Shown here: positions 36,411 through 59,774 of the stretch, piece after piece | Numbering within the stretch: position 1 is the stretch's first letter | How the letters are laid out: each line of letters opens with the position of its first letter | NCBI GenBank assembly: GCA_004431415.1 | Contig: QPMI01000508.1 | Span: 109,429-173,428 of the forward strand | Source: Cyanophora paradoxa CCMP329 | Lineage: Eukaryota; Plantae; Glaucophyta | Direction: 5' to 3' | Length of the DNA stretch: 64,000 nucleotides | Position numbers and translations under genes: made by a program | Notes under the pieces: generated by a model | Seen by the model: the letters and a program-made list of their open reading frames with translations, nothing else | What the model was told of the DNA's origin: nothing | Database searches by the model: none

Positions 36411-36523
36411 ATATGTTCTATAAAACAGAATAATTGAGATCAAGTGTGACAGGTAGTATTCAAATGATATTCAGTAAGAGATAGTTTTGTTTTTGAGAAA
36501 GTCAGTAAGAGGGGTGGAATGTC

Positions 36524-36960
36524 TGTGACGCCTGTGACGGCTGTGACGCCTGTTTTCAGAAGTCTGTCATTTTTGAAAATTTTAAAAAGTTTGAAAGTAG
36601 GTGTCACAGGCGTCACAGGCGTCACACTCAATTAACTTAGGTGTCACAGCGAAATTGCAGACCATTTCCAGTAAGGCAACTTCGCATTATCAAAAAGGTT
36701 GATTAATGGATATTGTTTTGTAGGTGTCAGAGGTGTCACAAGACGGATTTCAGTAAGACAAGAATATATTTTTGAATATCTCAGTAAGAGAGATAGATTC
36801 CATTTTTAATTGGGTGTGACGCCTGTGACGGCTGTGACGGCTGTTTTAAGAAGTCTGTCATTTTTGAAAATTTTAGAAAGTTTGAAAGTAGGCGTCACAG
36901 GCGTCACAGGCGTCACAGTCAATTAAAGAGGCGTCACAGTCAATTAAATAGGTGTCACAC
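36524..36960. promoter_or_regulatory. Two iteron/AT-core cassettes (putative origins) in the left TIR; mirrored at 62777-63213
   Basis: (TGTGACGSC)3, AT-rich spacer, (GGYGTCACA)3 at 36524-36627 and 36814-36918, with extra half-sites. Confidence 0.55.
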
Positions 36961-37161
36961 CCGATTATCTGACCATTTTCAGTAAGACCATCTGAAATTC
37001 TGAATTTCTCAGTGTCAACTAACTCGGAAATCGCAATACTCTATGTTTCTCCGATTTCTCCAACCCTGAAAACACACCTGTTATTCTGTCATCTATCTCA
37101 TGAGATACTCTCGTTTCGCCAAAAATTGACAAACGATTTCCCATCATGCTGTAAAGGAAAC

Positions 37162-37428
37162 ATGCCGATTAACCAGCAATATCACAATTTCCATGGGACT
37201 TACATCTTGATTGTGAAAAGAATACAAGATCATTATGAGATCTTTCAAGAGATGGGATTGCGAATTACAAGGAGATCAACCCTTTGTAGATTCTTGAAAA
37301 AGAATGGTGCTAAATGGGATAAGACAATTCGCCGATGGTATACAGAAGATCGAAAGAGTCCCATTCTTAATATTTTCGAGACAGATGGGGAGTTCTTCTA
37401 TCAGGATCGGTTTAATCATTACCAATAG
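37162..37428 (+). CDS. Small viral protein with a DUF5710-like motif
   Basis: FLKKNGAKWDKTIRRWY matches the K..GA.WD...K.WY motif; ATG 37162 lies just outside the TIR. Confidence 0.5.
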   Translation: MPINQQYHNFHGTYILIVKRIQDHYEIFQEMGLRITRRSTLCRFLKKNGAKWDKTIRRWYTEDRKSPILNIFETDGEFFYQDRFNHYQ

Positions 37429-38344
37429 CCAACAACTCCAACTGGAATGAGTTGTCAATTCCATTCATATCTACAAGATCACCATAATAATCGCGAAACT
37501 CAACTGTTAACTCTCTAATGACCAAATTGCGATCGGTTATTTTTATGTATTCACTGTGCTCTCCACTGTGGTAAACATACTGTCCAATATCTTTACTTAA
37601 TTGCAATCTGAGAATCGCCCCTTGATTCTGTGGTTGAGATTGGGGGACAATATTGTGGTTTGTAGCAAATGGGGAGAGTTCTTTAATGTGCATGTATAAA
37701 TACTGTTCTGCATTCATATCTGTCATCTTGGAAGCTTCTAACTTGTAGTTTAAGCGAGATGCCTCGAATTCATATCCTGTGAATGTGATTCCCCATTGGG
37801 GATGGTTTGGGGTGATTGGTATTCCTGCGAAATAAAGGAAATTCTCGGGGGCATATAAAGACCTTGCAGACTCTGGGAAATCGTAAATCTGTTCAGTGGA
37901 AGCCACCCACTCCACTGAACTCACACCAAGAAGTTTACCCAATCTCTGTGTAGATGCAACCATATCGAATTGAACATTACTGTAAAACTCCAATTTGTAG
38001 GAGGTAGGGTTGTAGTAGACCTTGAATGCATATGTGAGATTGTTGCTCCCAGTAAATGTGAAATTCAGACCATAATTATATGGAGTGGTGACCCCGAAAT
38101 GACCTTGATTTATGTAACCACTTGGGAGAAGGAAGACCTGCTTGGTTTCAGAGATGCCTTGGTAGTAGAATCTGACAAGAAGGTGGTCTGTTCCAATGGA
38201 GTTATAGATGCTGTTGGGGATCTCTGCATACAAAACTCGACATTCTCTTGGTTTGGTCACTGGGGTTGTGAGTGAAACCTTGTAGGAGTTTTCTATTTGT
38301 CCATTTGATCGGTCTCTGCTATCTATATTGACCAGCCGAATCAT
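37412..38344 (-). CDS. Minor capsid (penton) protein 1
   Basis: N-terminal VNIDSRDR, EIPNSIYN; C-terminal YLYMHIKEL...LTVEFRDYYGDLVDMNGIDNSFQLE, the single jelly-roll penton pattern of PLVs/NCLDVs. Confidence 0.8.
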   Translation of the reverse strand: MIRLVNIDSRDRSNGQIENSYKVSLTTPVTKPRECRVLYAEIPNSIYNSIGTDHLLVRFYYQGISETKQVFLLPSGYINQGHFGVTTPYNYGLNFTFTGSNNLTYAFKVYYNPTSYKLEFYSNVQFDMVASTQRLGKLLGVSSVEWVASTEQIYDFPESARSLYAPENFLYFAGIPITPNHPQWGITFTGYEFEASRLNYKLEASKMTDMNAEQYLYMHIKELSPFATNHNIVPQSQPQNQGAILRLQLSKDIGQYVYHSGEHSEYIKITDRNLVIRELTVEFRDYYGDLVDMNGIDNSFQLELLAIGND

Positions 38345-38372
38345 TTTAATATATGTTTATAGATAAAAGAAG

Positions 38373-39383
38373 ATGCCTGTGGATTACATTGAAGTGAGCT
38401 CTTTCAATACAATTTCGGGAGATGGACCTACTTCGAGTTTTATTGCTCGCCTCCCAAGCACCTATGAATTTGTGAGAGCAGTAAGACTGGTTTCAGCAGA
38501 ATTCTATAACAGCATTCCCATGGTGAGTGGTGAAACCAAACCAGGAGATGTGACAATTGATAATGCAATCTACCTTTATTGGTCTGAATATCTTTCTGGT
38601 GCAGGAAGCACTGGTATTCCAACTGATCGACCTGCTGCTGATTATGAATCATGGAAACACATTGTGATAAGTCGCAGCACACCCATTCAAAACCACCAAC
38701 AACTGGTGAATGTAATTAACTCCAAACTTGCATTGAGAGAGCCACCAGTAGCAATTCGCTGTAAATGGGATGATACACTGAAACGAGTTATATTCCATTC
38801 AACCATACCGTTTTACCTGGCTTTCTCAACCGCAATTAACCCAACCCAGGCACAAATTCAGAGATTTTTGAGTTCTGCTCGACTGCTTGGTCTTGATCCT
38901 GGGAGATATGGTAACACCCCAATCCAATCACAAGTTTATAATACTCTGACTGATGGTATCTTCACTGGGTCGATGGTGCATGGTATTATATCTTCATTTG
39001 AACCTGAAAAGACCAGGGATAGTGTTCTGTTTGTGAGAGTAAAGGAGTTGGGTGATCTGGTTCAATGTGGTGATGGTCTCCTCACTGGATACTTCCACAA
39101 AATCGTTGTTCCAGATAAAGATTATGGTGAGCATGTCGTTTATAATTCGACAGAAGCCCATCCGATTTATAAATACTATAACAAGAATCTGGGACTTTCC
39201 ACATTTTCGGTTGATATTGTGAATGCAGTCAATGAACCAATTGATTTCGAGGGTCAACCTGTCCACCTCACCTTCGAAATTCGATATGGTGATGAACCTG
39301 CTGGTGATCCTGTGTACGAATACTTCAAGAGGAGAATGGCGGAAACACATCCATCTTATCCTGTTATTGCGAATTTTGCGTAA
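38373..39383 (+). CDS. Minor capsid (penton) protein 2
   Basis: IEVSS...F...LP....V.AVRLVSAEFYNS; LFVRVKEL...FHKI...LSTFSVDIVNAVNEPIDFEGQPVHLTFEI. Confidence 0.7.
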   Translation: MPVDYIEVSSFNTISGDGPTSSFIARLPSTYEFVRAVRLVSAEFYNSIPMVSGETKPGDVTIDNAIYLYWSEYLSGAGSTGIPTDRPAADYESWKHIVISRSTPIQNHQQLVNVINSKLALREPPVAIRCKWDDTLKRVIFHSTIPFYLAFSTAINPTQAQIQRFLSSARLLGLDPGRYGNTPIQSQVYNTLTDGIFTGSMVHGIISSFEPEKTRDSVLFVRVKELGDLVQCGDGLLTGYFHKIVVPDKDYGEHVVYNSTEAHPIYKYYNKNLGLSTFSVDIVNAVNEPIDFEGQPVHLTFEIRYGDEPAGDPVYEYFKRRMAETHPSYPVIANFA

Positions 39384-39437
39384 AATCAAGGATCATTGGT
39401 GAATTTTTTATGTTGCAGTATAATAAAAGAGATAATC

Positions 39438-40808
39438 ATGGATATTACTTCGACCCTCCAACGTCTTTCTCTGAAAGAAGCTCTAACAACCCCGGAAGAA
39501 GCCAAGGCGTTCTTCCTGGACAACTCTCTCATGCTTGGTCTTGAATCCAAGTCGAAGCCAGTTCTTGTTGTTGTGAACCCAAGCAACACTTTCGAGAATA
39601 ATGCTGGAAATCGCATTTCGTTCAAGCTCCCTCGCTACAATTTCTGTGGAAAACTCGAACTTGCGTTTGACCTTCCAGCTGTCACTTTTGCTGGTGATAC
39701 CGACCTTGTTCGCAATGGATACGTTCGCCCAGTTGGTGCTCTTGTCTCTCGACTTGAAATCACCTATGGATCTTACACTTTCCATGTGCCTTCTGATTTC
39801 CTTGCTCATTTCCCTCTTATCTATTACAGTGAGGATCAACTCGCCAAGAAGAAGCGTTCAATGGGTATGGTTCATGGTATCCCTGCCCATGGAACCAACC
39901 GACTTGGTGGTTCATTCTTTGTTGAAATCCCCGTCCCATGGCTAAACCACTACCTACCTCTTGGTGCTCTCTCAGGAGAAATGGTGGTAACTGTCTGGTT
40001 CAAGGATGCTGGAAAGGGTTATGTTGAGACTTCTTATGGTGGTCGTGCTCTTCCTGTTGTTGGTGGAACAGCTGCTGATAAGACAGAGGATGATGGACTT
40101 GGTGCTACTGCTAATGCTACTCTTGCCCATGTTGGTCAACAGATCACCACTTTCACCATCTCTGGAACAACCCCCGAAATTAAAGTCACTTCTCCTCGTC
40201 TTTACATGCATGCTATTAATGTTTCTGATGAACTGTTTGCTACTGTCATTGAGAAGGTGAAGACCACTGGTATGGCTATTCCTGCTCTGGATATTGGTTT
40301 CGTAGACAGTGTCAATTTTGCTGCAAAAGGCAATGCTCAGCCAAATCGTATTAACCTGTCACAGATCTCTGGTCTTGTCTATGGTCTTCTTGTTTCAGTT
40401 CGTGATGCCGCAGGTATTGATGGTTTCAATGGTTCCCACAGTGTTCTGAAAACGTATGCTAACTCAAAAGACATTACTTTCACTGTTGAAATTAATGGTC
40501 AACGTCTCTATGCTACTGAGCCCATCCCTCTCCTCAAAGGTGCCGAATTAATTGCGGATGCCTTCAAGTGCTCAAATATGGACAAGGTTGCAGACAAATA
40601 TGTCCTCAGTGGTCTACCATTCTGTGTTGATGGAGAGAAAGCGATTCGCAACATTGCCCAGTCTGGCTATGTTGATCTCACGAACTCCTCCTCCTCTTTC
40701 CTCACTCTATACATGCCTTCTGACCAGACAATCACAGTTAATGTTCGTGCTCTCATGCACAGTTTCATTATTGTTGACAAAGATGGTCTTCGTCGCATTA
40801 ATCTGTAA
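39438..40808 (+). CDS. Major capsid protein (double jelly-roll)
   Basis: 456 aa, beta-rich; ISFKLPR....GKLELAFDLP, LVSRLEITYG, FVEIPVPW...LPLGALSGEMVVTVWF; lies between penton and packaging ATPase. Confidence 0.8.
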   Translation: MDITSTLQRLSLKEALTTPEEAKAFFLDNSLMLGLESKSKPVLVVVNPSNTFENNAGNRISFKLPRYNFCGKLELAFDLPAVTFAGDTDLVRNGYVRPVGALVSRLEITYGSYTFHVPSDFLAHFPLIYYSEDQLAKKKRSMGMVHGIPAHGTNRLGGSFFVEIPVPWLNHYLPLGALSGEMVVTVWFKDAGKGYVETSYGGRALPVVGGTAADKTEDDGLGATANATLAHVGQQITTFTISGTTPEIKVTSPRLYMHAINVSDELFATVIEKVKTTGMAIPALDIGFVDSVNFAAKGNAQPNRINLSQISGLVYGLLVSVRDAAGIDGFNGSHSVLKTYANSKDITFTVEINGQRLYATEPIPLLKGAELIADAFKCSNMDKVADKYVLSGLPFCVDGEKAIRNIAQSGYVDLTNSSSSFLTLYMPSDQTITVNVRALMHSFIIVDKDGLRRINL

Positions 40809-40870
40809 AACCATTATCAGTAACGTTTCGTTATTTTTATCTATCTTTAATAAGAAAGATCTACAAAGCC

Positions 40871-41653
40871 ATGAACGATTTAGAAGAGTTTAATGCAGGC
40901 GAAATGATAACCCCACCATTTCGTGCTCTTTTCATAGGAAAGTCTGCAACAGGCAAGTCAGAATGTGTGAAATATTGGTTGAAACAGCTGCATGATGCGA
41001 AAAAGATTGATACTGTTCTTGTTGTGAGTGGGACGTCCTTCAATCATTTCTGGGATGCAGTTGCAACATTGCAACTCGGGAAATGGGATGCTGCTTACAT
41101 TTCCAAATTACTGGATGAAAGGCAGGAGAAAATCGAAAAAGGGGAACCTGTGAATCAAATGTGTATTGTCCTTGATGATTTAATAGATAATGAGTTAATA
41201 GACCTAACTCGTGATAAAATAATTGGCTCTGTGTATTCGCGCGGCCGACACTCGGCAGTATCCTGTATCTGCATAACTCAGAAATTGCGTAAGGTTTCTT
41301 CAACAATTCGAGTAAATTCGGATTATGCTGTGTTCCTGAGTGCTGCAAATCGCAAAGAACTCGAAGCCATTGAAGAGGAATATAATATCATGCGAAACAA
41401 GGACGATTTCTATAAGATGTTTGAGGAGTATGTGCACTCTTACCAATATATTGTGTGGTCTTCTGCAAATTATTCGGTGAACTATTATGTTGATAAAGCG
41501 GATCTGGTCAAAGATTTCGCATTTCCTCGGTTCCACAGGAAGCCCAAAAAGAAAGAGGACGAACTACCACCTCCACAGAAAGAGGAAGCCCCCAAAGAGG
41601 TCAAGAGTGGTGTTCATTCGAATAAACTGATGCGATATAAGAGAGGTTTGTAA
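40871..41653 (+). CDS. A32-like (FtsK/HerA) DNA packaging ATPase
   Basis: Walker A GKSATGKS, Walker B IVLDD, RGRH..VSCICITQ, IRVNSDY. Confidence 0.92.
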   Translation: MNDLEEFNAGEMITPPFRALFIGKSATGKSECVKYWLKQLHDAKKIDTVLVVSGTSFNHFWDAVATLQLGKWDAAYISKLLDERQEKIEKGEPVNQMCIVLDDLIDNELIDLTRDKIIGSVYSRGRHSAVSCICITQKLRKVSSTIRVNSDYAVFLSAANRKELEAIEEEYNIMRNKDDFYKMFEEYVHSYQYIVWSSANYSVNYYVDKADLVKDFAFPRFHRKPKKKEDELPPPQKEEAPKEVKSGVHSNKLMRYKRGL

Positions 41654-41681
41654 AATAATCTCTGCTTCTAATAAATATACA

Positions 41682-42416
41682 ATGCCTTCCAAACGCAAAG
41701 TTGGTGTTCCTGCCGGTGCTATGTCATATTCTGCATCCTCTGGAACCGGTTCTATTAACATAGAGCCCCTGAAATTCAATGGTGTCAATGAAGTGAAAGC
41801 ATCACAGCAACAGGAAGATCCCCTCAATGCTGCTTATGAAGAATCTCCCGATGATAAAGCGCCCCAGGCATCCACCAGTGATCAATTGAATATTTCGCCC
41901 GAAGCCACAAAGATGAAGGCAGTTGGTGAAGGTGCTCGTCGAATTATTGGTGCTGCTGATGATAAAGGACTTGGTCTGCAAGATCTCTCACTTGCCCGCA
42001 AAGGTGAAGGTGTCTCCAAAGAATCCGACAAGGTTATTCAATCGATGGCTGGTGAGGTCACCTACAAGGTCGCACCTACACAGAATATCCACCGAATTCC
42101 CAAAGCCCAATGGGACGAAATGACTGCGAAACTTAAAGATCTGGAAGCGAAATCGAGTGCACTTGAACAGTATGTCTCTGAGAAGAAAGAGAGAGCGAAA
42201 TTAAAGGAGATGCTGCGAAAGGAGGTGTATAGAATGGGAATCACTGGTCTCCCAGATAAGCAGTTCATTGGTAAGAAAGAAACTCAAATCGATGAGCAGG
42301 CAGTTGATGAGATGAAGACCAAAACCCAGAAGGGCACCATTGAACCTGGTGCTACCAAAGCAGAGGTTGACAAAGGTGTTGCCCCAACAGTATATAAACG
42401 ACGAGTATGGCTATAA
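41682..42416 (+). CDS. Hypothetical viral protein (hydrophilic, coiled coil)
   Basis: 244-aa ATG ORF in the dense viral gene array. Confidence 0.7.
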   Translation: MPSKRKVGVPAGAMSYSASSGTGSINIEPLKFNGVNEVKASQQQEDPLNAAYEESPDDKAPQASTSDQLNISPEATKMKAVGEGARRIIGAADDKGLGLQDLSLARKGEGVSKESDKVIQSMAGEVTYKVAPTQNIHRIPKAQWDEMTAKLKDLEAKSSALEQYVSEKKERAKLKEMLRKEVYRMGITGLPDKQFIGKKETQIDEQAVDEMKTKTQKGTIEPGATKAEVDKGVAPTVYKRRVWL

Positions 42417-42443
42417 TTATCTCGCATTAAAAGAGAAAGCATC

Positions 42444-42677
42444 ATGGATTTTCTGCGCAAAATCATTGAGATGTTTAATCTCCACATTGTGAGCAATTGT
42501 CACAGTGGTTGCTGTGACACCAAAGTCGAAATCGAGTTCTCTGACACTGAAAGTCATGGATCTGGCGGTAGGCGATTATCCACAGACTCGGTGGATTTCG
42601 AGGAGCATATTAAAACAGAGACAGTGAGGCGACGCTCTGTATCTTTCACAGATCCGAAATTAAATCTCGGTAATTAA
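42444..42677 (+). CDS. Small hypothetical viral protein with a Cys cluster
   Basis: 77 aa, SNCHSGCC motif, upstream TAAAAGA. Confidence 0.55.
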   Translation: MDFLRKIIEMFNLHIVSNCHSGCCDTKVEIEFSDTESHGSGGRRLSTDSVDFEEHIKTETVRRRSVSFTDPKLNLGN

Positions 42678-42878
42678 TATCGAATGCTCAGTCTCTCTGA
42701 GATCTATGCTATCCTTGAAAGGAAATCCGCTGAATATGCAACAGAAGCCGCAATAAAAAAGCGTAGACAGGAACTGGTCTCGATCTGCAAAAAATGACAA
42801 GGGATTTAAGGGTAAGGTGTGTTTGATTGGTGAACCCGGACAAATTATTTTCTCGTCCCAATATAAGGAACATATCAA

Positions 42879-43106
42879 ATGGAAACTGAATCTGTGGTCG
42901 AATTCGAACTTGCAATGAGCGAAATGGATCCCAATGAGAGGAAAAGGTTGTATGACCGCTTGTATTTCCAGAAACGTTATCAAGATGAGGAATTTCGTGA
43001 ATTATATCGTAAAAAGGCACTGGAACGATATTATCGCAGGAAAGCTGCTGAGATGGATCCCAATAATCCAGTAAAACGCCCAGTAGGTCGTCCCAGGAAA
43101 TACTGA
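42879..43106 (+). CDS. Small basic DNA-binding protein with a C-terminal AT-hook
   Basis: KRPVGRPRK AT-hook after a helical Y/R/K-rich region. Confidence 0.7.
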   Translation: METESVVEFELAMSEMDPNERKRLYDRLYFQKRYQDEEFRELYRKKALERYYRRKAAEMDPNNPVKRPVGRPRKY

Positions 43107-43299
43107 ACCGCCCCAAAGTCCCAGATATCCGCTGAATCCTTTTTGTTACCATGATCAATCGACTTTTCGATGGATCATTACCATATATCGAGCGCCAATC
43201 GGAAAACCCAAAGGTATTTAAAGGTTAGCCGCCAAAAAATGACAAGCGACCGGAGAAATTAATTTCTCCATTAAGTATAAGAAGCCCCCGATTTTCGAA

Positions 43300-45663
43300 A
43301 TGAACGCTGCCGCCAAGAAATCCCTGAAACGCCTTGTTGATTGGCTTCGTGAAGACGATGTCCTGTCTGAGAATCTCGTAATTCCTGTTGATCCTGATAC
43401 CAAAAGACCGCTTTTCGCTCATAAAGACGGATCCTGGACTTGGGATAAATTCGATGAAGCCCTGAAATCCGGTAAATATACTGCTTGGGGCATTCTTGCT
43501 CGTAATATCATGGTTATTGACTTCGACCAAGAGGAGGATTTCGCCAAATTCGAGGAGCAATTCCCTGATGATTTCGGTGGTGTTAATCCACTTGCTAAAA
43601 CCAAAAAAGGATATCATGCTTATTTCGCTCGACCTGCTGAATTCGACACCATTAAGATCTGGGATAAAGCAGGTGCATTCAAAGGAAACCCCAAGATCGA
43701 CTGCAAAACGATTGCATCCACTGGGACTGCTGGGGTAATTAATGTTTGTCCAAGTCCCAACAAAACATGGATCAGAGAGCCATGGGCATCTGAGTGTGAG
43801 TTAAATGAACCTACTGCTGAGTTGCAAAAGTGGATTGTTGACAACTACGAATTCCCCAAAGGTGCACATTCTTATTTTGAGAGGTGCGCTGAGGAGAATT
43901 TGCAGAAACATATTCTTTCTAAACTGGAAGAATTCGGTTTCATCTTGCCCACAATCATCAATGAGACCAAGATGGGATACAATTTCACTGCTGAGAACAA
44001 AGGTCTGATCTGTCCCTGCTGCAAGGGAAGCCATGACTCGAACAATTGGTATATTGTTCAAGGGAAGGAGAAGGACAAATATATTGTTTCGAGTTACAGT
44101 GCAAACTGCAAAAAGCGAAGCATCACAGTTCGTGTGAAGGAAGAGACAGATGTGAAGATCGAAAATCTGATTGATCGGTCTGCTGGATCTGATGGTGCCC
44201 ATTATGATGTTGCACAGGTTGCCTATCTTGTTCTGCAAGACAAATACAAGTATTCCAACAAGACCTGGTTCAAGTTCAATGATGTATGTGGGATTTGGGA
44301 GATGGATGAAACTGGGAAGCGAATCTTTCTCTGTTTGAGCTGCAAGGTCTGTCCAGTTTATCTTCAACGTTCTGTTCAACTCGCACAGAGAGCACTTCGT
44401 GATGAAGAGAACCGCAATTCCTTGGAGGAAAGGTCAAAGATTCTGCTGGGAATTGCTAAGAGCCTCAAACAGACTACATACAGAACTGCACTTATGTCTG
44501 ATCTTTCAGTTCTGTTCAGTGACAAGACCTTTTTCGAGAGACTTGATACTGTTCCCAACATCATTGGATTTACAAATGGTGTGTTTGACCTGAACTCCAT
44601 GACTTTTCGACAGGGACTCCCAGATGATATGGTGAGTAAGACTGTTGGCTACGATTACACCACAGAAATTGACCAAGAGAAAGTTGCGAAGATTAAATCC
44701 ATCTATGCAGATATTATCGAATCTGATGAAAACCGCGAATTTATGATGGGATTAATTGCCTATGCCCTGAGTGGTTTGACAGAAAATCAGAGATACACTT
44801 GCTGGACTGGAATTGGAGCAAATGGGAAATCACTGCTCCAAGAGTTGGTGAAAGACACATTTGGTGAGTATTATGGGTCACTGGACATGACATATTGGAC
44901 TAAACCCAAGAAGAGTTCGTCAGAGGCTTCCCCAGAACTCGCTTGCATTCTTGGTAAACGAATTGTTTTCAGTAATGAAGCAGAAGATGGTGATATGCTT
45001 CAACTGAACAAAATCAAACAGGTTACTGGTGGGAATGAGATGAAGGTTCGAGCTCTTTTCAAAGATCTTGTTACATTCATTCCCATGTTCCAGTTGTTCT
45101 TGTCCACAAATGACAACTTGGGAATCAGTAAACCAGATGCAGCAATTCAAAGGCGAATTATCTACTACCGATTCGAAAATGTCTTCAAGGTCGATCCTCA
45201 GCCTGGTGAGAAGAAAGCAGACACCACTCTCATGCGCCTAATGAAGAATGATGACGATTATAAAATGGCGCATATGTCCATTCTCCTGGAAATGTGGAGA
45301 ACCCATTCTCTCAATGAATTCGTCACCAAACCACCCCAGTCCATTGTTGATCAAGGTGTTGAATATTTCAATGAGAATGACAAGATTGGAGAATGGATTC
45401 GTGAGAGTTATGAACTCACCAAGAGTCAAGGGGATTTCGCCACAAGTGAGTCCATTATCAGTCACTTTAAGATGGATCACATGGGCAAATCTGATGAGAA
45501 AATCACAGAATGCACTATCTTGAAGAGACTTCGCGAAGTCTTTAATGTGAAGGCTGAGAGAAAGCGAGTCAATGGTGTTCTTGCTCGTGGCTACTTTGGG
45601 ATCAAAAAGAAGCATAGTCGCAAGTTGGTGGATGACAGTGATGTTGAAGGTGGGGATGAGTAA
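43300..45663 (+). CDS. Primase (Prim-Pol-like) fused to a D5-like SF3 helicase
   Basis: N-terminal VIDFD and T..GYHAYF primase motifs; CPCC...H Zn finger; IGFTNGVFDL (D5_N); Walker A GIGANGKS, Walker B FSNE, motif C LSTN. Confidence 0.9.
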   Translation: MNAAAKKSLKRLVDWLREDDVLSENLVIPVDPDTKRPLFAHKDGSWTWDKFDEALKSGKYTAWGILARNIMVIDFDQEEDFAKFEEQFPDDFGGVNPLAKTKKGYHAYFARPAEFDTIKIWDKAGAFKGNPKIDCKTIASTGTAGVINVCPSPNKTWIREPWASECELNEPTAELQKWIVDNYEFPKGAHSYFERCAEENLQKHILSKLEEFGFILPTIINETKMGYNFTAENKGLICPCCKGSHDSNNWYIVQGKEKDKYIVSSYSANCKKRSITVRVKEETDVKIENLIDRSAGSDGAHYDVAQVAYLVLQDKYKYSNKTWFKFNDVCGIWEMDETGKRIFLCLSCKVCPVYLQRSVQLAQRALRDEENRNSLEERSKILLGIAKSLKQTTYRTALMSDLSVLFSDKTFFERLDTVPNIIGFTNGVFDLNSMTFRQGLPDDMVSKTVGYDYTTEIDQEKVAKIKSIYADIIESDENREFMMGLIAYALSGLTENQRYTCWTGIGANGKSLLQELVKDTFGEYYGSLDMTYWTKPKKSSSEASPELACILGKRIVFSNEAEDGDMLQLNKIKQVTGGNEMKVRALFKDLVTFIPMFQLFLSTNDNLGISKPDAAIQRRIIYYRFENVFKVDPQPGEKKADTTLMRLMKNDDDYKMAHMSILLEMWRTHSLNEFVTKPPQSIVDQGVEYFNENDKIGEWIRESYELTKSQGDFATSESIISHFKMDHMGKSDEKITECTILKRLREVFNVKAERKRVNGVLARGYFGIKKKHSRKLVDDSDVEGGDE

Positions 45664-45731
45664 ACAAAACAGAATCGATTCTAATACTGATTGAATTTCT
45701 TATTTTTTAAAAACCTTACTGTAAATGGTTT

Positions 45732-45866
45732 GTGTGACAGCTGTGACACCTTTTTAATTGAGTGTGACGCCTGTGACGCCTGTGACGCCTATTTTCAAAC
45801 TTTTTAAAATTTCAAAAATCTACAAACCTCTGAAAACAGGTGTCACAGGCGTCACAGGCGTCACAC
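45732..45866. promoter_or_regulatory. Internal iteron/AT-core cassette (putative replication origin) just downstream of the primase-helicase
   Basis: (tgtgacgcc)3, tattttcaaactttttaaaatttcaaaaa..., (ggygtcaca)3; same design as the TIR cassettes. Confidence 0.6.
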
Positions 45867-46017
45867 CCAATTAACCACAGACTCCCCCCTGTGGGTCGAT
45901 GACTGTTTCGATTCTTAATCGGACAATATAAAAACGTATCGAAAATCGTTGTGTTGTGACAAAAATTGACTGGCGATTTAAGGGATCGTTGCGTATTTCA
46001 CTTGACTAAGACAGAAA

Positions 46018-46209
46018 ATGGATTATTTTGATGAAATTCGGCAGCAGCTTGTCGAAAAGAATGATATTGCAGAGGTGGCGGATTATATTGCAAAGATCAG
46101 AGCAGGTTATGGTAGAACCTATCAAAAGAAGCGTGTTTATGCAAGCAGACTCGACACAGTGAATGTATATGTCCCCAAAGGCACGAATGTGCGAATTATC
46201 AGAACCTGA
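46018..46209 (+). CDS. Small hypothetical viral protein
   Basis: 63-aa ATG ORF filling the gap before polB. Confidence 0.45.
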   Translation: MDYFDEIRQQLVEKNDIAEVADYIAKIRAGYGRTYQKKRVYASRLDTVNVYVPKGTNVRIIRT

Positions 46210-46265
46210 AAAATGCGAAATGCGTTTAAAACGCCCAAAAATAATATGTTCCCTTAAAGTAAAAG

Positions 46266-49200
46266 ATGCCCCGCCAATCAAATAGAATCATCAAAGAAAA
46301 GAAAAACGAAATACTCGGTCTTTTAGGAACCCTTTTAGTTACTGGTGATATTACAGAATTCGAATATGATCGCCAGGCAGCAATCCTGGATAGGAGACCA
46401 AGATTATCTCAACTCACAGAAATTACTAATCGCCTCTATGATCGTTTTGAGAAGATGGAGGAATTCAGGGATGAAGGTTTAAGGTTGGGAACAATTGAAC
46501 CCGAGATTGAAGATGGGGAAGCAATGAACAAAGCATACTCTTGGTTAACCTATCGAGCAAGAGGGAGGTTATCCAAGATGGGATTGAATTCTTGGAGAGA
46601 ATTGCACCCACTCTACCTCAGAGACTCAGACAGAAACTCCAAGACCTGAGAGCAATTAAGACTCGGTTGACCTTCATTTGTAAGTTCACCAAAGTGAGTG
46701 ATCCAAGGGTGTGGATCACCAAGTTCATTTATAGTGATTACTTTGTCATCACAAGATCTCGAAATATTGATGTTGAACTGCGAAATGCACTTCAAGCAAT
46801 GCAGGAACAGATGATGCAGGTGGACAGTTACAGACTGGATCGCATCGAGATGCTGAGAGTGGTTATAATGTCTTATGCTCCTGTGGGTGGTTGCTTCTTC
46901 TCAACACCTGAGTGGATTGGATTAAAGAGAGCAACTGTGAATGTCAAGAATATTGATGGTCAAGACTGCTTCAAGTATGCAATCTTGGCTTACCTGCACC
47001 GAAAGGACATCAATAAACACAAGAGCAATGAACCCAGCCAGTATAGAAGATGGTTAAACGAACTCAATTTCGAAGGCATCCAGTTTCCAGTTGCCTGTGA
47101 TGCAGAAATCATTGATCGATTTGAGGAGCAGAACCCTGAACTGAGTATCAACATTTATGGTGCAGATAATCAAGCACAGTGTTTCTATCCTCTCCATCAA
47201 TCCTGCAACCCGAGGAGAAAGACCAAGATTAACCTTTTATTAATCGAAAACGAAGAGGATGATAGAGGACATTATATCACCATTATGTCTCTGAGTCGAC
47301 TCCTGAAAACCACCTTTGATAAAGCCCATGATGGTCGCATTTATTATTGTGAGACCTGCCTGTCTCGTTTCAGAACTCAGGAGAAGCTGGACATTCACTT
47401 AGAAGCCAATCGCTGCATTGATTGGAGGAGAGCAAAGGTAAATGCCCGAAATCTGGAAGTCACATTGCATTTGGGCTTCAACACCTTCGCAAAACTGTGT
47501 GGCTTCCCACTATCTGCTATGTAAAAATGGATAGTCACTCGGTTCCAATTGATGAGAACCGCAGTAAAAGAGCGGTCAAATCGGTTTCTTTAACAGTTGT
47601 GATGGGGATGAGGTGATCTCTCATTATTTCGAGGATCAGATCCACTTGGTGCTCTGTTTACCACTCTCACAGAGATCAGACCCCAAGTAATCCGCACTCT
47701 ATTCACCAATATTCCAATGCACCCACTCACAGAAGAGCAGAAAGCACAATACAAGATCACTAAACACTGTTATATCTGTGCTGAACGATTTACCCATGAG
47801 AATTTCCCAGTAAGAGACCATTGTCATCAATCAGGAGCTTTTATTGGAAAAGCATGCCGAAACTGCAACCTCCACAGGAGAATCTCAAAGCAAACGAAAG
47901 TAGCAATTGTGGTGGATCACATGGATGAATGTGGACACGAAATATTCCGCAAAATTGCACAGCAAGATGATAAACTTCGTGTTGAGATTCTGAGCAAGAA
48001 TTTCGATCAATACCTCTCTCTGCAATGGGGCATGTGGAAATTCATAGATGCTTCGCACTTCATGGACTTCCAGGCAGTGGATTCTGGTGATCTTATGAGT
48101 AAATTCCAGACTTTCCGAGAATTGGCGTTTTCCCAATATGGATTGGATCCTGCCCACTATGTTTCGGCTCCTGGATTATCCTGGGATGCAATGCTCATTT
48201 ATACCAGAGCAAAGATCGAGCAGATCAGTGATGTAGGGCAATACGAATTCATTGAGAGAGCAATTCGAGGTGGGTTTGCTACAATGCCTACTCGATATGC
48301 AAAGGTGGAAAACCCAGATGACCATATAGTTCTCTTGGATGCAAATAATCTGTATGGTTTTGCTCTCAGTCAAGAACTGCCCATTGGAGATTTTCGATGG
48401 GAAGATGTCTCAGAGGCACTTAAAGAGACCCAAGGACGAAGTGCCTTTATTGAAGTTGACCTGGAATACCCACAAACTCTCACAGATCATTACGATTTTC
48501 CACTTGTAGTTAATAAAGAACATGTCACCACCGAAATGCTGGGTGGGTATCAAAGAAAGTTACTGGATATCACAGGTGAGAAGATAAGCAAAGACCCCAA
48601 ACTCACTGCAACATTCTCACCAAAAATAACTATGTGATTTCCCAACCTCTCTTGATCTATCTTGTGAGCAAAGGTATTATAATCACGAAGGTTCACAGGG
48701 TTCTCTCATTTGCAACCTCTGCATTCATGAAGAGTTATATTGATCTAAATACGAAACTGAGGCGCCAATCTATGTCCAGATTCGAGAGTGACTTCTTTAA
48801 ATTAATGAACAATGCAATCTATGGTAAATGCCTCGAATCATGCAGGGGTCGCTCTGTGGTAAAGATTGCAAACAGTGAGAAACTTTGCAAGAAATATGCT
48901 GCAAGTCCACTCATCAAGGCAACCAATGTATTAAACGAAAATGCTGTTGCCTTTGAGATGTATTCCAAGCATGTTCACTTAGATAAACCTGTTGCAATTG
49001 GTGCTTTTGTGCTGGATTTCGCGAAACTCCACAATAGCAGGTTCTTTTATGATGTGGTGAGGAGAACTTGGGAAACAGCAGAGCTACTATTCCATGATAC
49101 AGATTCTTTCTGTCTCCTGCTGCATACCAATGATCTAAATAATGAGATGAAGCGAATTGCTGGACACCTGGATTGCAGTAATTATGATCCCACCCACCCT

Positions 49201-49542
49201 CTCTTTGATAGGAGCAATCGTTTGATTCCAGGTAAATATAAAAACGAGTTTCCAAATGCAAAGATTGTGGAGTATGTAGGTCTGAGATCGAAACTCTATG
49301 CTTTCAGAACTGAGACCTTTGATAAAATAAAGATGTCTGGGACTTCCTCCAAAGAGGTTCACTTTGATGATTTCAAGAGATGCCTGTTTGAAGGCATCAC
49401 CAAAACAGTAGCAGTAGTAAACAAGCGAAGGCAAGACCACAACCTATATGATTTGGAGAGCAGAAGGGTGGCTCTAAACCAACTCGATAGCAAAAGGAAG
49501 ATATTAGACGATGGAATTCACAGCATTCCATTTGGGCTCTAA
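46266..49542 (+). CDS. polB: Protein-primed-type family B DNA polymerase (Maverick/adintovirus-like), split by five single-base frameshifts, exonuclease motifs degenerate
   Basis: CFKYAIL, FEEQNPELSINIY, RDHCHQSG...ACRNCNL, YGLDPAHYVSAPGLSWDAML, IRGG, motif A DANNLYG, motif B KLMNNAIYGK, motif C DTDS, GLRSKLY. Confidence 0.88.
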
Positions 49543-49707
49543 TCTACTTCATCAATCTTTCTTTTTCTTTGGTTTCGCTCTCCAAGAAGTAATAAACCGC
49601 GAATTAAATGCAGCAGCCATATACATCTTAATCCTGGATCATTGGGCTCAATTGCAAAGTAGTTTGGAATTGTGTTCTCCTTCCACACAGACTCTTGCAT
49701 TTATTAT

Positions 49708-51126
49708 ATGAGAGATAAGGTAAAGATGCCTTCTACACAAATAGGATTGAGACAACCACCCAGAATTGTAAGAAAAGAGGCAATTGAAGATCGAGGGAAT
49801 ATCCTGCCCATCACAGTTCCAGTGGAGGAGAAGAGCAGTCGAATATTGAAAAGATCAGAGATGGTCAAGCAATTAATCCCAGAGACCCTCCCAGCTGAGA
49901 CAGCACCAAAAGAGTCGAAGATTGCTAAGAAGTTCTATGATCCCAGGACAGGCTACAAGGGATTTACTGCAATGAGACAGGAACTACCAGAGGAGAACTA
50001 CAAGAAGATGAGAGAGTGGTATGATAAGCAGGAGGTCGTCCAGATTAATGCACCCACCCTATCTCGAAAGAGAGATCCCATGATTCCAATAAGGCAACCC
50101 CTTGATACCTATGTGATTGATCTGCTCTTCTTTCCTGCATACAAAAAGCAGAATGATGGTTATGATACATTTATGAGTGCAATGGAGTCAACCCTGAGAA
50201 CAGGGTTCATAATTCCAATGAGAGACAAGAGTGCTCTTACTACACTTGCAGCATTCAAGCAACTTGAACAGAGAGTCCCCAGACCAATTGTTCGCATTCA
50301 GAGTGACAGTGGAAGCGAATTTACCAATGTGTTGTTCACAGATTATTTGGGAACAAAATTCATTGAGCATCAACTAAGTGATGTTGCAGATCACAGAACC
50401 CAAGGTCGAATTGAAGCCTTTAACAGACAGATCAAGAGATTGATCACAAACTACTGCATTGCAAATAATACTGCACGATTTTTTGATGTGTTGGGTGATA
50501 TTGAGTATAATTATAATAATACCATTCACTCTGCAACCAAGAGAAAACCAGCAGAGACCACAGAAGCCCACTACAAAGAGATTGTGAATATGGAGGATCA
50601 GAGATTCAAGAAATCGATTGAGTATCTTGATGCCCTGAAACCTGGAATGTTTGTGAGAGTGAAAGTTGAAAAGAATCCATTTGCAAAGCAAGGGGTTAAT
50701 TGGTCTCGAATTGTTTATAGTGTGGAGGGCAGAGAGGGCTTCAAGTTCAGAATCAGAAGTCCCAGTGGTGAGATAGTTGATGGTAGATTCGCTTTTCATG
50801 AACTGCTGCCCATTAAAGGTGTTGAGTATCATGAAACTCCCACAGTGGATGCTCTTGAACAGGCAAAGGAGGAAGCCAGGGTTGATTCAGCAATCAGAAA
50901 GGAGGGCATAGAAAAAGCAAGTGAAATACCAAAAGAACCCCTCACAGAAGCAAGAGCACAAAAGAAGGGTAGAGTAGAGAAAGAATTAAAGAAGTTGACC
51001 ATAGCAGGAACCCAGAAATTATCAGAAGTCAACAGTCAGAGGTGGTATAATGACTTTTCAACCACCAAAGAAACATATACTGCACCCCAAACTCGATTCA
51101 ATCTACGAAGAGGGCAGAGGAAATAG
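49708..51126 (+). CDS. Retroviral-like (rve) DDE integrase of Polinton type
   Basis: VIDLL (D), IQSDSGSEF (D), GRIEAFNRQIK (E), YNNTIHSAT...P, SH3-like G..VRV...NWS; no chromodomain seen. Confidence 0.92.
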   Translation: MRDKVKMPSTQIGLRQPPRIVRKEAIEDRGNILPITVPVEEKSSRILKRSEMVKQLIPETLPAETAPKESKIAKKFYDPRTGYKGFTAMRQELPEENYKKMREWYDKQEVVQINAPTLSRKRDPMIPIRQPLDTYVIDLLFFPAYKKQNDGYDTFMSAMESTLRTGFIIPMRDKSALTTLAAFKQLEQRVPRPIVRIQSDSGSEFTNVLFTDYLGTKFIEHQLSDVADHRTQGRIEAFNRQIKRLITNYCIANNTARFFDVLGDIEYNYNNTIHSATKRKPAETTEAHYKEIVNMEDQRFKKSIEYLDALKPGMFVRVKVEKNPFAKQGVNWSRIVYSVEGREGFKFRIRSPSGEIVDGRFAFHELLPIKGVEYHETPTVDALEQAKEEARVDSAIRKEGIEKASEIPKEPLTEARAQKKGRVEKELKKLTIAGTQKLSEVNSQRWYNDFSTTKETYTAPQTRFNLRRGQRK

Positions 51127-51127
51127 A

Positions 51128-51370
51128 TTAACAACGCTTTCGGAATCTCTTAGACCTCTGGCGAATTTTCCTCATTTGTCTATCTTTTTCAATAATTTCC
51201 AAGAAGAAAGTTTCAAGGTTTGAGACCAGTTGGTAATTATAAACAAAGAACAGTCTCACATGCTCTGGCTGTGACATGAAGAAATTGTAATAGAAAGCAG
51301 TCTTGAAATCATGGATCCAGTCTGACTGGGCAGCATGGATGATAGCAGGGTCTTGGTAGATGGGATCCAT
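51128..51370 (-). CDS. Small hypothetical viral protein with a basic C-terminus
   Basis: 80 aa from ATG 51370, convergent with the integrase. Confidence 0.5.
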   Translation of the reverse strand: MDPIYQDPAIIHAAQSDWIHDFKTAFYYNFFMSQPEHVRLFFVYNYQLVSNLETFFLEIIEKDRQMRKIRQRSKRFRKRC

Positions 51371-51530
51371 AGCAGAAGTTGGGAGAATCCAGAAACTCCT
51401 TGTCAATTTTTTATTTTGTAAGTGCCCGATCACGACGAATCCTGATTGGCGCTATCGTGGCGATTCCGAATCTGTTTTCAGATTTAAAAACGGAGCACCT
51501 GGTAATAAAATACATATGTATGACCGATAT

Positions 51531-51663
51531 TGAAGTTTCGGTGAAGTTTCGGTGAAGTTTCGGTGAAGTTTCGGTGAAGTTTCGGTGAAGTTTCGGAAAA
51601 GTTTCGGTGAAGTTTCGGTGAAGTTTCGGTGAAGTTTCGGTGGAGTTTCGGTGAAGTTTCGGT
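51531..51663 (+). repeat. 12 x 11-bp tandem repeat (TGAAGTTTCGG)
   Basis: Read directly; two variant units. Confidence 0.95.
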
Positions 51664-51689
51664 CAATCGGATAATTCTATGAATCGCAA

Positions 51690-51941
51690 AATGGTTGCGC
51701 GTCATCGCAACCATCATCGCAACCATGGTTGCATCATCGCAACCATCATCGCAACCATGGTTGCATCATCGCAACCAGGTTGCGCAACCACTCAATGGGA
51801 AAAACATTGGTTGCGCAACCACTCAATCGGAAAAAAATTGGTTGCGCAACCTGGTTGCGCAACCAGCGCAACCATGGTTGCATCATGGTTGCATCATATC
51901 GCAACCATGGTTGCATCATCGCAACCAGGTTGCGCAACCAT
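51690..51941. repeat. Array of palindromic GCAACC/GGTTGC modules
   Basis: Repeated gcaaccatggttgc and ggttgcgcaacc palindromes. Confidence 0.9.
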
Positions 51942-52391
51942 TATGACGTCATGACATCACTTGTTTCATCATATATATATATACCATACATTTCGTGTGA
52001 CACTGAGCCCCCCGAGTTGGCGACCGACCAATCCGCGATTTTGTGGTCAAAATGTATATATGCGCATATATACTTGACGGTTCGCGTTACTACTGTCGGC
52101 ATCGCCTAACGTTCCCACTGTGGGGCTGTCGGCATCTTCAAACGCTTGTATCTCACCACCAGATCATCAGATCGCGACCGTCGACATAGCGCTGGAAAGC
52201 GCTTAAAAAGACCTACACGATGGTGTAGGTATCAAGTATATATACGTATATATTTCATACATATATTTCGAAAAAACGATTTATCGGCTACTTTCTAATG
52301 TAAGGAACATACAGTAAAATAATGCAAAATACAGTAGCTACTGTAAAAAAAGCCATAATCTGGTGCACCATACATCAGAAGTCCTGATGTA

Positions 52392-53932
52392 TCATACACT
52401 TCGAATAAATGCACCTGTGACATCCACTCTCATAGTTGGGGTGTTGATGTATACAAGTGGATAAATTCGAATATACCTTGTCCTCAGAGGGTAGCCAATA
52501 TAGAAAACGTCTCTAATAGAGGTGGGATACCCAGAACTGTATGAGACATCACCACTGTTGTGGGCATTATTAATAGTTTCACACATAAACACTCTGTTGA
52601 CACCTTCATACTTGATAAATGACCAGGAAACACCATCTTGTGATGTTGCAACATTGAAGGTCTTAATAAAAGCGTTTGTTACACCAGAACCATATGCAAT
52701 TATAGATGCAACCTCAAATATGTATGGGAAGGTTACTTGGAGATACTCAGTGGGAACACTCCATATCCCATCAGGAGCAGATGCATTTGCTTCCCAACCT
52801 GTCAAGGAAGGTCTTGCTTTAAATGCCTCCCTTCCAATTTTTGATGATGAAGCAGTGAATGCACCATCTGATAGAAGATACCAGTTAGCATCAATGGGAG
52901 GTATGTTATTCAGAGTGGATGATATATAGAACCTTGCAGGGTTCTTGATTTCGTAATTTGCAACCAGTAAATCACAGAGTCTATCAATCATCACAGTGTT
53001 TGCTGCTATATATATTTCGGTTGCATCTATCATATCTGGTATTTTAGAGGTATCATCCAAAGAGTTTACTATGGTCTTTGGAAGTGGAACAGAGAGTCTA
53101 TAATATCTTGCATATCCTTGATCATCATTGTATGGGAGAAACTCTTGCATCTTTTCCAGAGCAGACAGTTCACTTGCAGCCATCAACATATTGATTAATG
53201 GACTTCCAGAGGTCGAAGCAATCCAAGAGAGGATGCCCCAGCTGTTCACATCTTCATAAGAGTAACCCACATTTGGAGCATCTGTTTCATTGACTTCACC
53301 ACAGGATATACTTATCACTATAATATCATCATCATCATCATAGATCTTCTTAGCATGACTGTAACCACAGACACTGGGATTGTTGTTACCTGAGATTGCA
53401 CCATCAATTAGAGACATCCCATCATAGTTCACAGGTGAGAAATATGTTGGAGCAGCAGAGGTGGATCTTGCAGCAATCTTGCTGGGGATGGATTTGTAGG
53501 AGTTATCATTGGTGATAAAAATGGGCTTCATACTCACAGTGTCAAAACTTGTGATCACTACATCTTTGAGAGAGTCTTGAATGAGAGACTCACCAGTAAC
53601 AGTGAGAATGGCTGTCTCCAATGGGGTCACATCATACTTGGTGTTGAAAAGTGCATTATCAATAATATTTCTGGGATTTGCAAAGATTAAGGGGAGTTGA
53701 TTGAGATAAGTGGAATGCAAATCGGTTGCAGTAAGTTTAGGTTCGTTTGGAAATTCGGGATTTTTCACATTGAGACCAATCGCAATTATCCCACCAGTGG
53801 ATGTTCCACTCACCAGATCAACAAGGTCAATTACTCTTTTTCCTGTTCGAGTTTCGATTTCTTTTAACAATCTCGTAATAATTATACCACGAGCTCCCCA
53901 CCTGATAATGAGAGAATTACACGAAGGGGCAT
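52392..53932 (-). CDS. Patatin-like phospholipase fused to a C-terminal F5/8 type C (discoidin) domain; one-base frameshift near the 5' end
   Basis: Restoring one G at about 53897 gives MPLRVILSLSGGGARG; GTSTG nucleophile; SAAPTYF; IDGA; discoidin FTASS...EYLQVTF...SQDGVSW...RTRYIRIYP...MRVDVTG. Confidence 0.88.
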
Positions 53933-53981
53933 CTTTACTTAACTCAAATTTAATAAATCTCTATAAGTAGAGTAAACAGGG

Positions 53982-56900
53982 ATGAGTTTCAATTACCCAG
54001 CAAACCTTCAAACCATTCCCTCATCAGGAAGAGGGAAGGCAGATAACAAACATGTGAATTTCGATAACTTGACAGCCAGAGGGTCAATCTCAATTGATCA
54101 CAGTGCAGATGAACCCTCAAAGACTCACCCAAGAGAGCATGCACTTTCAATAAACGAAATGGATCCCGAAAAGGAGGATGTGAGTGTTGCTTTCAGCATG
54201 GGGAATGTGAAATCGAATCAAGTAGCCCAGATTAAAGCAACCAGGAGCAGACCAAGAAAACTGAAAACCAGTGGAACCCATCCAGATATTCCAACTCGAT
54301 TCGATAGTGGTAGGTTAATATTCAATGTTCAAAATGAGAAGGGTGGGCATCAGAGTGGTTTGAGAATCTATAATGAAGGATCAAATGCAATTGCACAAAT
54401 TCCCGAAATATTACAGATAGCCCCCCATGGAGAAACCAACAAAATCGAGTTCACTAACAATGTTTATCCACGAGATATTGTGGCGAATTCGGCTTCTAAT
54501 GCGCAATTCGGTTTCCAACTACCAAGTGATACAGCAAAGAATAAGGCGTCTATCACTGTCAACAGTAGCCCCACTCAACCAGTAACAGTTCATTTACACC
54601 CAGACCTTGTCGAAATGGATAGGCACCTTTTACCTTTGGTGACAAACACCAAAGATCTTGGTATTAGAACCAGACAATGGCGAAATATCCATGGAAGCAA
54701 TGTCTATGCAAATGGAGAGAAACTTGTAAGTGAGAAGACCATAAGAGAGATCTTTGAGTATTATGGACCTGTCCCAGTTCCCTTCCCACTACCATGGGAT
54801 CCACCAGATTTAACACCCAAAAAGCAACCAGGAAGAGAATACACAGCAGATGAGACAGTTCCTTTTGGGCAACACATTGTTAGTTGGGAGCAAGTTCGCA
54901 ATAAACCTATAATTGAACCCAGAAAGCAAATTGATGAGCAATATTTACCTCCTGAAATTGATATTTTGGAGCTTGACGAATACCAATTCGTTCCAGATGA
55001 GGAGGAATACCTACCTGATGGTTTCGACCCACAAGAGTATGAATATGATCAATATGATCCCAATGAGGAAGAGTATTTACCAGATGGTTTAGATCCACAA
55101 GAGTATGAATATGAGCAGAATTATGAACCCCATGAGGAATATTTAGCAGATGGTCATGATCCACCAGCTGTTGACTATGAGCAACCTTATGAACCCCATG
55201 AAGAATTATTACCAGATGGATTTCGACCTGAGATTTGGGAATTCTTCCCAGATTGGGAGCAGATCAACAACAAACCAGCCAGATTTCCACCAGAGGATCA
55301 CAACCATGACTGGGATGAGATCTTAGGCAAACCTCAAAAGTATCCACCAGAGGATCACAGGCATGATTGGGGTGATCTGGATGGGATACCAGATAAGTTT
55401 GCAGCAAGCAACCATGAACACACCTGGGATGAGATCAATGACCAACCAGAATTCGCAAAAGTAGAGCCTCTTGCTACTCTGGGAGTTTCTCTTTACCAGA
55501 CTTGCAATGTCCCTGAAAGGATCTTTTTGAATCACCACTATGTTCATGTGGAAGGGACACTTGCAAATTCAGCTATGATAGGACCATTGCATATTAGAAC
55601 ATTACCAGGCTCTTATAATCCACCACCAGAACCAGGAGCAACCATACCAAATATCTTTGTGTCAAGCTACATGGAGGTTGACATACCCACAGATACTTTT
55701 AGAGTTCCAACAGACCCAGCAACCTACCAAAATTACAATGCAGCTATACAGGTTCATGTTGCAGATGTGAGCAGTCTGGATGGATCAAGACCAATGATAG
55801 TTTTCAGTCGAGATAAATACTCCTATATTCCCATAGTGGGAACTGCAAATGATAACTATGGGAGGGCAGAGCTTGCATGGATCAAAACAGATTATGGTGG
55901 GGTTCTCGAAGCCAATCAAAGAATGGCTGCAAAAAACATTCACAACGAAAATATATCGAGAGTGGTAACAGAAGATTATTTAGAAGATCAAGGATATATT
56001 GACGAAGGAGAACTAACGAATATTCTTTCTTTATTCGTGATTAAAAATGATACAAACCTTACAGTCACAAGTAACATTTACACCAGTAACATTTCAGCAA
56101 GTAACATTTGGACAAGTAACCTATGGGCAAGTAACCTATGGGCAGATGATATTTACACAAGTAATCTTACAGTGTATCGAAATATAACAATTGGAACACA
56201 AAATACTATACAAATACTTTATAGACCTTACTATGCTGTTACTACTGTCATTGATCCAGCCCCAATTATTCCAAATTGTATATTTGCATGGAAAGCATCA
56301 GGTCAACATGGTCAGTTGATATATTATCAAGGTCAGATATATAACAGAGTTACTACACAGATACCATATCTAACAAATTATTCGAATTGGGAAACTGTTT
56401 ATTATTATTTGAATGCAACCCTAAACAATCAAATTTCGATTGGGAAAGAATTAAACATGGCTTATAGGAATAGTGTTTCAATAGATTGGTCATTAGGTCT
56501 TACATTATTCTTTATAGGTAGGATCAATACTACAAATCCTTCTTATATGTTGAGTATAAGGGATAGTTCTTATCAAAATTGGATTGGATATGGTTGTAAA
56601 AATCAAAAGTTTGGTGTTTCACTACAAATTCAAAATGATATAGAAAATGCAACTCCTCCATTATTCGATGCATCATATATTTATAATTCGTGGAATTATT
56701 GGGATTTCACTGTTTCCTCAGAGCAAATTGTCGTAGGAATGGGTGGTATTGATATTGGAACATCATCGGGTGATTTTCTTCCACCTTCTAATTTTGCATC
56801 ATTTGGTTCTTCTGTTGCTAATGGAGATCTTGCCGAAATTATCGTTTTCAATCGTGCGTTATCTATTGAAGAAAAGAACGCGGTTAGATATTATATACAA

Positions 56901-59771: not shown

Positions 59772-59774
59772 TAA

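Follow-up and report, generated by a model that had tools for sequence, protein, structure and literature searches.

Phage P4 is a circular replicon in bacteria and uses a two-site origin (ori1 together with crr downstream of alpha) with the word TGTTCACC. In its alpha protein, a Toprim primase is combined with a D5-family helicase and a winged helix that binds the origin repeats (PMC4234260). In the SaPIs, the C-terminal winged helix of the Rep protein binds opposed iterons around an AT-rich region directly 3' of rep, and a SaPI origin is defined by at least two opposed iterons on each side of this region (PMC9371898). For SaPI5 it is described that adjacent subunits bind TGCAACC repeats via the wing, the spacing by AA yielding the 9-bp period (bioRxiv 10.64898/2026.10.17.759575). 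The Prim-Pol/SF3/winged-helix protein ORF904 of pRN1 requires a stem-loop of about 100 bp located 54 bp past its gene and carrying GTG in the arms, but this origin has no iterons and GTG mutations left replication working (PMC4234260). In polinton-like viruses (PLVs) the terminal inverted repeats (TIRs) were proposed as origins for the primase-helicases, and the invasion of polB elements by such helicases was modelled (Barth et al., 2024; PMC11296320); the accessible text of this article names no origin at the sequence level and contains the word "iteron" 0 times. Similarly, the accessible part of the Gezel-14T preprint (10.1101/2022.07.28.501842) does not mention iterons, and a PLV framework preprint from 2026 (10.64898/2026.06.19.733378) reports frequent swaps of pPolB and primase-helicase modules without treating origins. 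Our literature search, which covered sources other than subscription journals and supplements (e.g., the repeat tables of PMC11296320), did not reveal an iteron origin in any PLV or virophage. Here, we describe a candidate for such an origin at base-level resolution.

The window, i.e., the whole stretch of 64,000 nucleotides analysed, starts with 35.7 kb of host DNA with 68% GC, followed by an integrated element with a much lower GC content (Table 1); the GC skew of the window showed no informative pattern. This element is a polinton-like virus, as it encodes an A32-type packaging ATPase and a likely capsid protein (the latter recognised by language-model features only), is bounded by TIRs, falls into the size range of 15–40 kb, and exists in many integrated copies. 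With respect to a Polinton in the strict sense, the Pfam matches of polB and rve lie at or under the curated cut-offs. The capsid assignment is a lead, since the feature match of 0.98 to Capsid_NCLDV-type clusters comes with a recognition under the threshold of the tool; one homolog (60%) was found in a eukaryote protein set, and a capsid-seeded search of viral contigs returned no relatives. The polB region is split over three ORFs in the window, and the breaks are probably assembly errors because single-letter indels are seen against short-read contigs of four sequencing runs. It also bears an endonuclease VII-like motif, which might resolve fold-back junctions. Further genes encode a patatin and a fibre protein with an S74 chaperone, and between the integrase and patatin genes lies a tandem array of about 13 copies of an 11-bp unit (51522–51662). 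The element was detected in 20 public sequencing runs of one organism. In short-read contigs of four runs the host flank reached depths of 28.5, 102.6, 30.8, and 104.4, compared to about 800–1150, 2800–3800, 1200–1500, and 3000–3800 for the deeper single element contigs, which suggests tens of element copies, a rough figure given the GC bias in depth ratios; diverged element subfamilies occur at lower depth in the same four runs. An identity of the element as a SaPI or phage-inducible chromosomal island was considered and ruled out by the capsid lead, the A32 ATPase, polB, rve, the TIRs, and the homolog in the eukaryote set.

Table 1. Features of the element and its origin-like cassettes, numbered from the first nucleotide of the window.
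Feature	Coordinates	Strand	Remarks
Integrated polinton-like virus	35737..64000	.	28,264 bp, 40% GC
Left terminal inverted repeat	35737..37114	+	1,378 bp
Terminal palindrome	35737..35830	.	94 nt, 28-bp perfect arms; fold -33.5 kcal/mol
72-bp-type TIR repeats	36152..36410	.	mirror 63327-63585
Cassette A, left TIR	36524..36626	-	inverted relative to internal copy
Cassette B, left TIR	36815..36917	-	inverted relative to internal copy; 291 bp from A
Likely double-jelly-roll major capsid protein	39438..40808	+	language-model features only
A32-type packaging ATPase	40871..41653	+	Pox_A32, E 2e-10
Prim-Pol and D5-type SF3 primase-helicase	43300..45663	+	787 aa
C-terminal winged-helix domain of the helicase, predicted iteron reader	45367..45624	+	residues ~690-775
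Upstream part of the duplicated unit	45715..45762	+	CTTACTG, extra iterons at 45733 and 45742, TTAATTGA
Internal cassette I, likely origin	45763..45865	+	100 bp past helicase stop
Protein-primed-type family B DNA polymerase region	46541..49542	+	DNA_pol_B_2, E 6.8e-6
Likely rve-type integrase	49708..51126	+	E 0.002, under curated cut-off
Right terminal inverted repeat	62623..64000	-	1,378 bp; end coincides with window end
Cassette B, right TIR	62820..62922	+	direct repeat of internal copy; single iterons ahead at 62778 and 62799
Cassette A, right TIR	63111..63213	+	direct repeat of internal copy; single iterons ahead at 62997 and 63089

An earlier note on this DNA had reported five origin-like cassettes, two in each TIR and one after the primase-helicase gene, and a regular-expression search over the whole window returned exactly five, all within 1 bp of the reported positions. 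Each cassette spans 103 bp and consists of three TGTGAC-NNN iterons, an AT-rich core of 49 bp, and the inverted triplet. The left and right TIRs are 100% complementary; because of this identity, the five cassettes represent three distinct sequences, namely A, B, and I. None of the 36 hexamer positions varies among the three. The cores contain 78–80% AT and belong to the least stable 1–3% of the 40-bp windows of the element; core A and core B agree at 47 of 49 positions, and core I agrees ungapped with core A at 41/49 and with core B at 39/49, rising to ~90% identity to A after one compensating indel. The internal copy had been described as having conserved iterons and a diverged core, of which the first part stands, but the core is only mildly diverged. 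The copies share more than the cassette itself: a unit of ~160 bp starts with CTTACTG (45715 at the internal site), continues with one additional iteron as well as TTAATTGA, and stops shortly past the cassette. A blastn search of the cassette against annotated phages yielded weak matches to the AT-rich core only. That the repeats arose by chance or through misassembly is highly improbable. Indels of the window against short-read contigs do occur elsewhere in it, but ten iteron triplets are observed in the element compared to none in 300 third-order Markov simulations of its sequence, and short-read contigs from independent runs start in the helicase gene and reach or enter the first iterons while differing little from the window (X1, 45538–45778, with 0 differences; X2, 44930–45759; X7, 44526–45782).

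The internal cassette follows a gene for a primase-helicase that carries the DxD motif (residues 74–76), His106, the Walker A motif GIGANGKS, and a D5_N domain; its stop codon lies at 45661–45663, with the first iteron 70 bp downstream. In structure searches with the full model the top solved-structure matches were ASFV PrimPol and mpox E5. Modelled separately with 50 sequences, the C-terminal domain reached a pLDDT of 86 and is predicted to be an RFX-type winged helix: the first three ranks among 48,161 chains were RFX5 (Z 10.7), RFX1 (Z 9.8), and the P4 origin-binding domain (1ka8; Z 7.5, a value that the tool classes as common; rmsd 2.5 over 77 aligned residues), and Foldseek likewise placed RFX first (E 1.8e-3). 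Resembling P4 alpha in this predicted domain, the element differs from P4 by its Prim-Pol primase and its linear, TIR-bounded genome. Winged helices are also found on giant-virus D5 proteins such as ASFV PrimPol (Z 6.4) and vaccinia D5 (Z 4.7), and a shared fold does not by itself establish function.

With a probability of roughly 0.75, we interpret the cassettes as a putative iteron origin of the SaPI5/P4 style, which would serve the Prim-Pol/D5 helicase of the element and was duplicated into the TIRs. The earlier note had recognised the layout of a SaPI-type origin, and this comparison holds: opposed iterons flank an AT-rich core (three plus three in all five cassettes, with at least two per side in the definition), and the accompanying helicase has a predicted winged helix. 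The position directly downstream of the helicase gene, also part of that comparison, applies to the internal copy only. In SaPI5, likewise, a fused primase-SF3 helicase with a winged helix (PriRep5) is followed by an origin (ori5) of opposed iterons with 9-bp period around an AT-rich core. Unlike SaPI5, the element probably has a eukaryotic host, encodes a jelly-roll capsid, polB, and rve, and possesses five putative origin copies, four of them in TIRs. Moreover, SaPI5 uses the word TGCAAC and has an inverted iteron with a short AT gap inside the arm, whereas the element uses TGTGAC and the iterons within each arm of I all point in the same direction, an inverted one being absent. Mechanistically, the predicted winged-helix domains would bind the TGTGAC repeats spaced at 9 bp, with adjacent subunits of a hexamer reading neighbouring iterons via the wing and one hexamer loading per arm, by analogy to PriRep5. 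The 49-bp core would then melt and, following the same analogy, the rings would travel 3'-5' outward. The Prim-Pol domain may prime, perhaps at the GTG within each iteron like ORF904 of pRN1, and the primers might be extended by the polB of the element or by a polymerase of the host or of a helper virus. More speculatively, the TIR copies, 0.8–1.2 kb away from the ends, could launch forks out through the terminal palindromes, the 3' ends of which might fold back and self-prime, so that a terminal protein would not be needed. Several points weigh against the cassettes as origins: the protein-primed-type polB could initiate from the ends and dispense with them; giant-virus D5 proteins have winged helices, yet a cassette is present at only 1 of 111 of their loci; and a strict downstream cassette is missing from 9 of 14 relatives. 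The article from 2024 only hypothesises TIR origins, and the element offers a base-level candidate that combines a word of 6 bp with a 49-bp melting core and a protein domain of 85 residues.

The same helicase might instead recognise the cassette as an extruded stem-loop of 100 bp in the manner of pRN1, irrespective of the iteron sequence. Such recognition is in line with the common domain plan of both proteins and with the stem-loop needed past the ORF904 gene (PMC4234260); a fold of -45.7 kcal/mol was computed for cassette I, in which 26 of the 27 positions in the arms are complementary, and cassettes of related loci fold as well. Conversely, the stem sequence of the iteron-free pRN1 origin is not conserved (PMC4234260). 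In the element the hexamers are invariant while spacer changes in A and B break the arm pairing without compensation, so that sequence read-out is favoured over a stem; furthermore, single iterons occur outside the arms, and in two relatives (L122 and L129) the arms differ in their spacing. A stem-loop mechanism is accordingly rated as unlikely. We consider it similarly improbable that another protein uses the repeats as transcription-factor, promoter, or packaging sites, which would make their place after the helicase incidental. The internal cassette does lie upstream of the polB region, and other words in the TIRs (CTTACTG and TTAATTG) suggest that other factors may bind there. However, TGTGAC is not enriched in the host DNA (5 seen, 11.8 expected), the same word is found past SF3 helicases in bacterial viruses, and relatives carry different words at the same position.

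In support of the origin reading, two scans of viral contigs for the DNA word alone led to SF3 helicase genes, and the matched loci look like prokaryotic viruses. The TGTGAC iteron triplet was found at 17 loci: seven within 130 bp of the stop codon of a VapE/DUF5906 SF3 helicase, six representing coding Val-Thr-Pro repeats, and four unassigned. A scan for two opposed pairs 40–70 bp apart resulted in 13 other loci, 10 of which adjoin a D5_N or VapE gene (seven within ~100 bp downstream, one at 440 bp, two upstream) and three of which do not. A window of 130 bp makes up less than 1% of a 20-kb contig, and these counts are to be read in the light of the phage loci in both scans having been picked by motif.

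The iteron origin proposed here had been tied to cassettes beside homologous helicase genes elsewhere, and these were found, with different repeat words. Searches seeded with the Prim-Pol sequence yielded 41 loci, and 14 non-redundant ones with a complete primase-D5 gene and at least 250 bp of downstream sequence were kept; the 27 others comprised two duplicates (L126 and L151), seven of AAA_25 type (L112–117 and L148, two of them Pfam-checked), and 18 that were truncated, had less than 250 bp downstream, or lacked a D5 domain. We applied a motif-blind detector that searches for a tandem 5-mer pair with a period of 7–12 bp and an inverted pair 30–120 bp away; its settings were picked after viewing the window and some relatives, and it gave 10 matches in 1.41 Mb of control DNA. 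The first helicase search, whose results were mostly large contigs of giant-virus type, served as the control. Within 130 bp after the stop, 5 of the 14 relatives were detected, compared to 1 of 76 giant-virus-type D5 loci (Fisher p 2.5e-4), and 35 further loci of the latter type added no match. The five words are GTGTAG (L122), GTGGTC with a second copy GTGATC (L124), GTGATAG (L125), TGAGT (L129), and TGTCAA in the prokaryote-like L119. The sole match among the giant-virus-type loci (L058) is a GGCCGT cassette with 9-bp period ~20 bp past the stop; its contig of 16 kb also encodes an A32 ATPase. A strict downstream cassette is absent in the nine other relatives: two carry it upstream (L133 and L142), three are weak by eye (L139, L141, and L144), and four have none by detector or by eye (L111, L120, L147, and L150). 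L111 (17120–18057) ends in a perfect fold-back of 469 bp, and L150 and L151, which represent the two ends of a single 50-kb contig, are identical over 15,096 bp; these ends are either closed hairpins or amplification artefacts. L125 also contains a second, larger opposed array (12680–12880; TGCCGT three times, ACGGCA nine times) 250 bp past its first cassette. The tested relatives are 22–31% identical in the helicase part, and the closest helicase, P0001 (36%), lies outside the tested loci. The earlier note had suggested that the iteron word co-varies with the helicase clade, which is borne out insofar as the words differ between relatives, but few close pairs exist with which to track the tree; in a quick helicase tree with long branches, helicases that have a cassette fall into more than one group. 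Gene neighbours encoding RCC1, a cap-methyltransferase, and RNA polymerase suggest that L129, L125, and L122 are eukaryotic viruses. In L122, the helicase gene (1682–4105) adjoins the start of the gene for the second RNA polymerase subunit and has a 170-bp copy of the GTGTAG cassette on either side (1030–1132 and 4145–4246), the two being inverted, which looks like a mobile origin-helicase-origin unit within a giant-virus genome. Duplication of the cassette recurs, with two inverted copies in L122 and two in tandem in L124 and L133. In L133 (1–4310), a terminal 55-bp hairpin and CCAAT-word tandem repeats are followed by a tyrosine recombinase, a pair of TGGGAT cassettes at a distance of 326 bp, and the helicase, an overall plan near that of the TIRs in the window. 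The relatives provide at least seven natural word variants, and the detector could be used to locate origins in thousands of PLVs and to tell mobile D5 replicons apart from the giant-virus core D5.

Concerning the history of the copies, the earlier note had assumed that the origin arrived with the helicase and was then copied into the TIRs. The internal and TIR copies do share a common descent over ~160 bp; as to the direction, the site behind the helicase is probably the older one, which we regard as only somewhat likelier, on the grounds that A and B are mutually closer, that the TIRs are without a helicase remnant, and that the post-stop position is conserved. Alternatively, the internal copy may be the relic of an older right end, or the copies may have been kept alike by conversion; in either case it would still be an origin. 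This course of events appears possible but less probable. Several features fit a relic: the left-TIR copies and the internal one lie in inverted orientation on either side of the capsid-helicase half, as a pair of TIRs would, Gezel-14T carries a direct repeat of more than 300 bp in the TIR and past the end module, primase-helicase end modules adjoin inverted repeats in PLVs (both Barth et al., 2024; PMC11296320), and L133 combines a recombinase, two cassettes, and a helicase beside a terminal hairpin. In contrast, the internal site ceases to resemble the TIR within ~10 bp past the cassette, with weak matches farther out in the flanks (p 0.07 downstream, 0.04 upstream), a helicase-coding remnant was not found in the TIR, and cores A and B resemble one another more than either resembles I. 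The PLV end modules of Barth et al. (2024; PMC11296320) contain tyrosine recombinases, whereas the element has rve and its helicase lies 6 kb from the nearest TIR. A wider and rather doubtful extension, put forward tentatively, is that small eukaryotic DNA viruses harbour an overlooked class of phage-style iteron origins riding on mobile D5 primase-helicases in the form of origin-helicase(-origin) replicons that differ in their repeat word, and that the element was caught in the middle of such a takeover, with polB kept and both TIRs colonised beside fold-back ends. If true, the element would be a working model of how protein-primed polintons switched to hairpin-ended replication driven by a primase-helicase.

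The terminal palindrome is mirrored at 63907–64000 and, as seen in the integrated copy only, could fold back when single-stranded. Related elements of this organism have retained the terminal arms of 28 bp and differ in the loops and the inner TIR (35765–35802, loose ends). The word CTTACTG occurs six times per TIR compared to 0.18 expected (62751–63265, mirrored at 36472–36986) and once more just ahead of the internal cassette. In the TIR repeats of the 72-bp type the word TTAATTG is contained in each repeat and TGTGAC once in three of them. The latter half-site had been reported for these repeats, and it is indeed present at 36159, 36231, and 36366 and at the mirror positions, but this counts as one event with a chance of ~3% because the repeats copy one unit. 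A gene for S-adenosylmethionine decarboxylase (62317–62718) enters the right TIR with its 3' end, leaving a mirror copy of this part in the left TIR. A further iteron-like sequence, GTGACAC, had been assigned to the left junction; the sequence exists at 35734–35740, but its GTG belongs to the host flank, since contig depth rises 20–30-fold in the bin 35736–35741 and alternative flanks attach before 35735, 35736, and 35737 in short-read contigs, which places the left end of the element at ~35737. A junction iteron was therefore rejected as a feature of the element, this GTG being part of a host flank that is common to a minority of ends. The flank in question, GCACGTG (35730–35736), hints at a palindromic target preference or a duplication.
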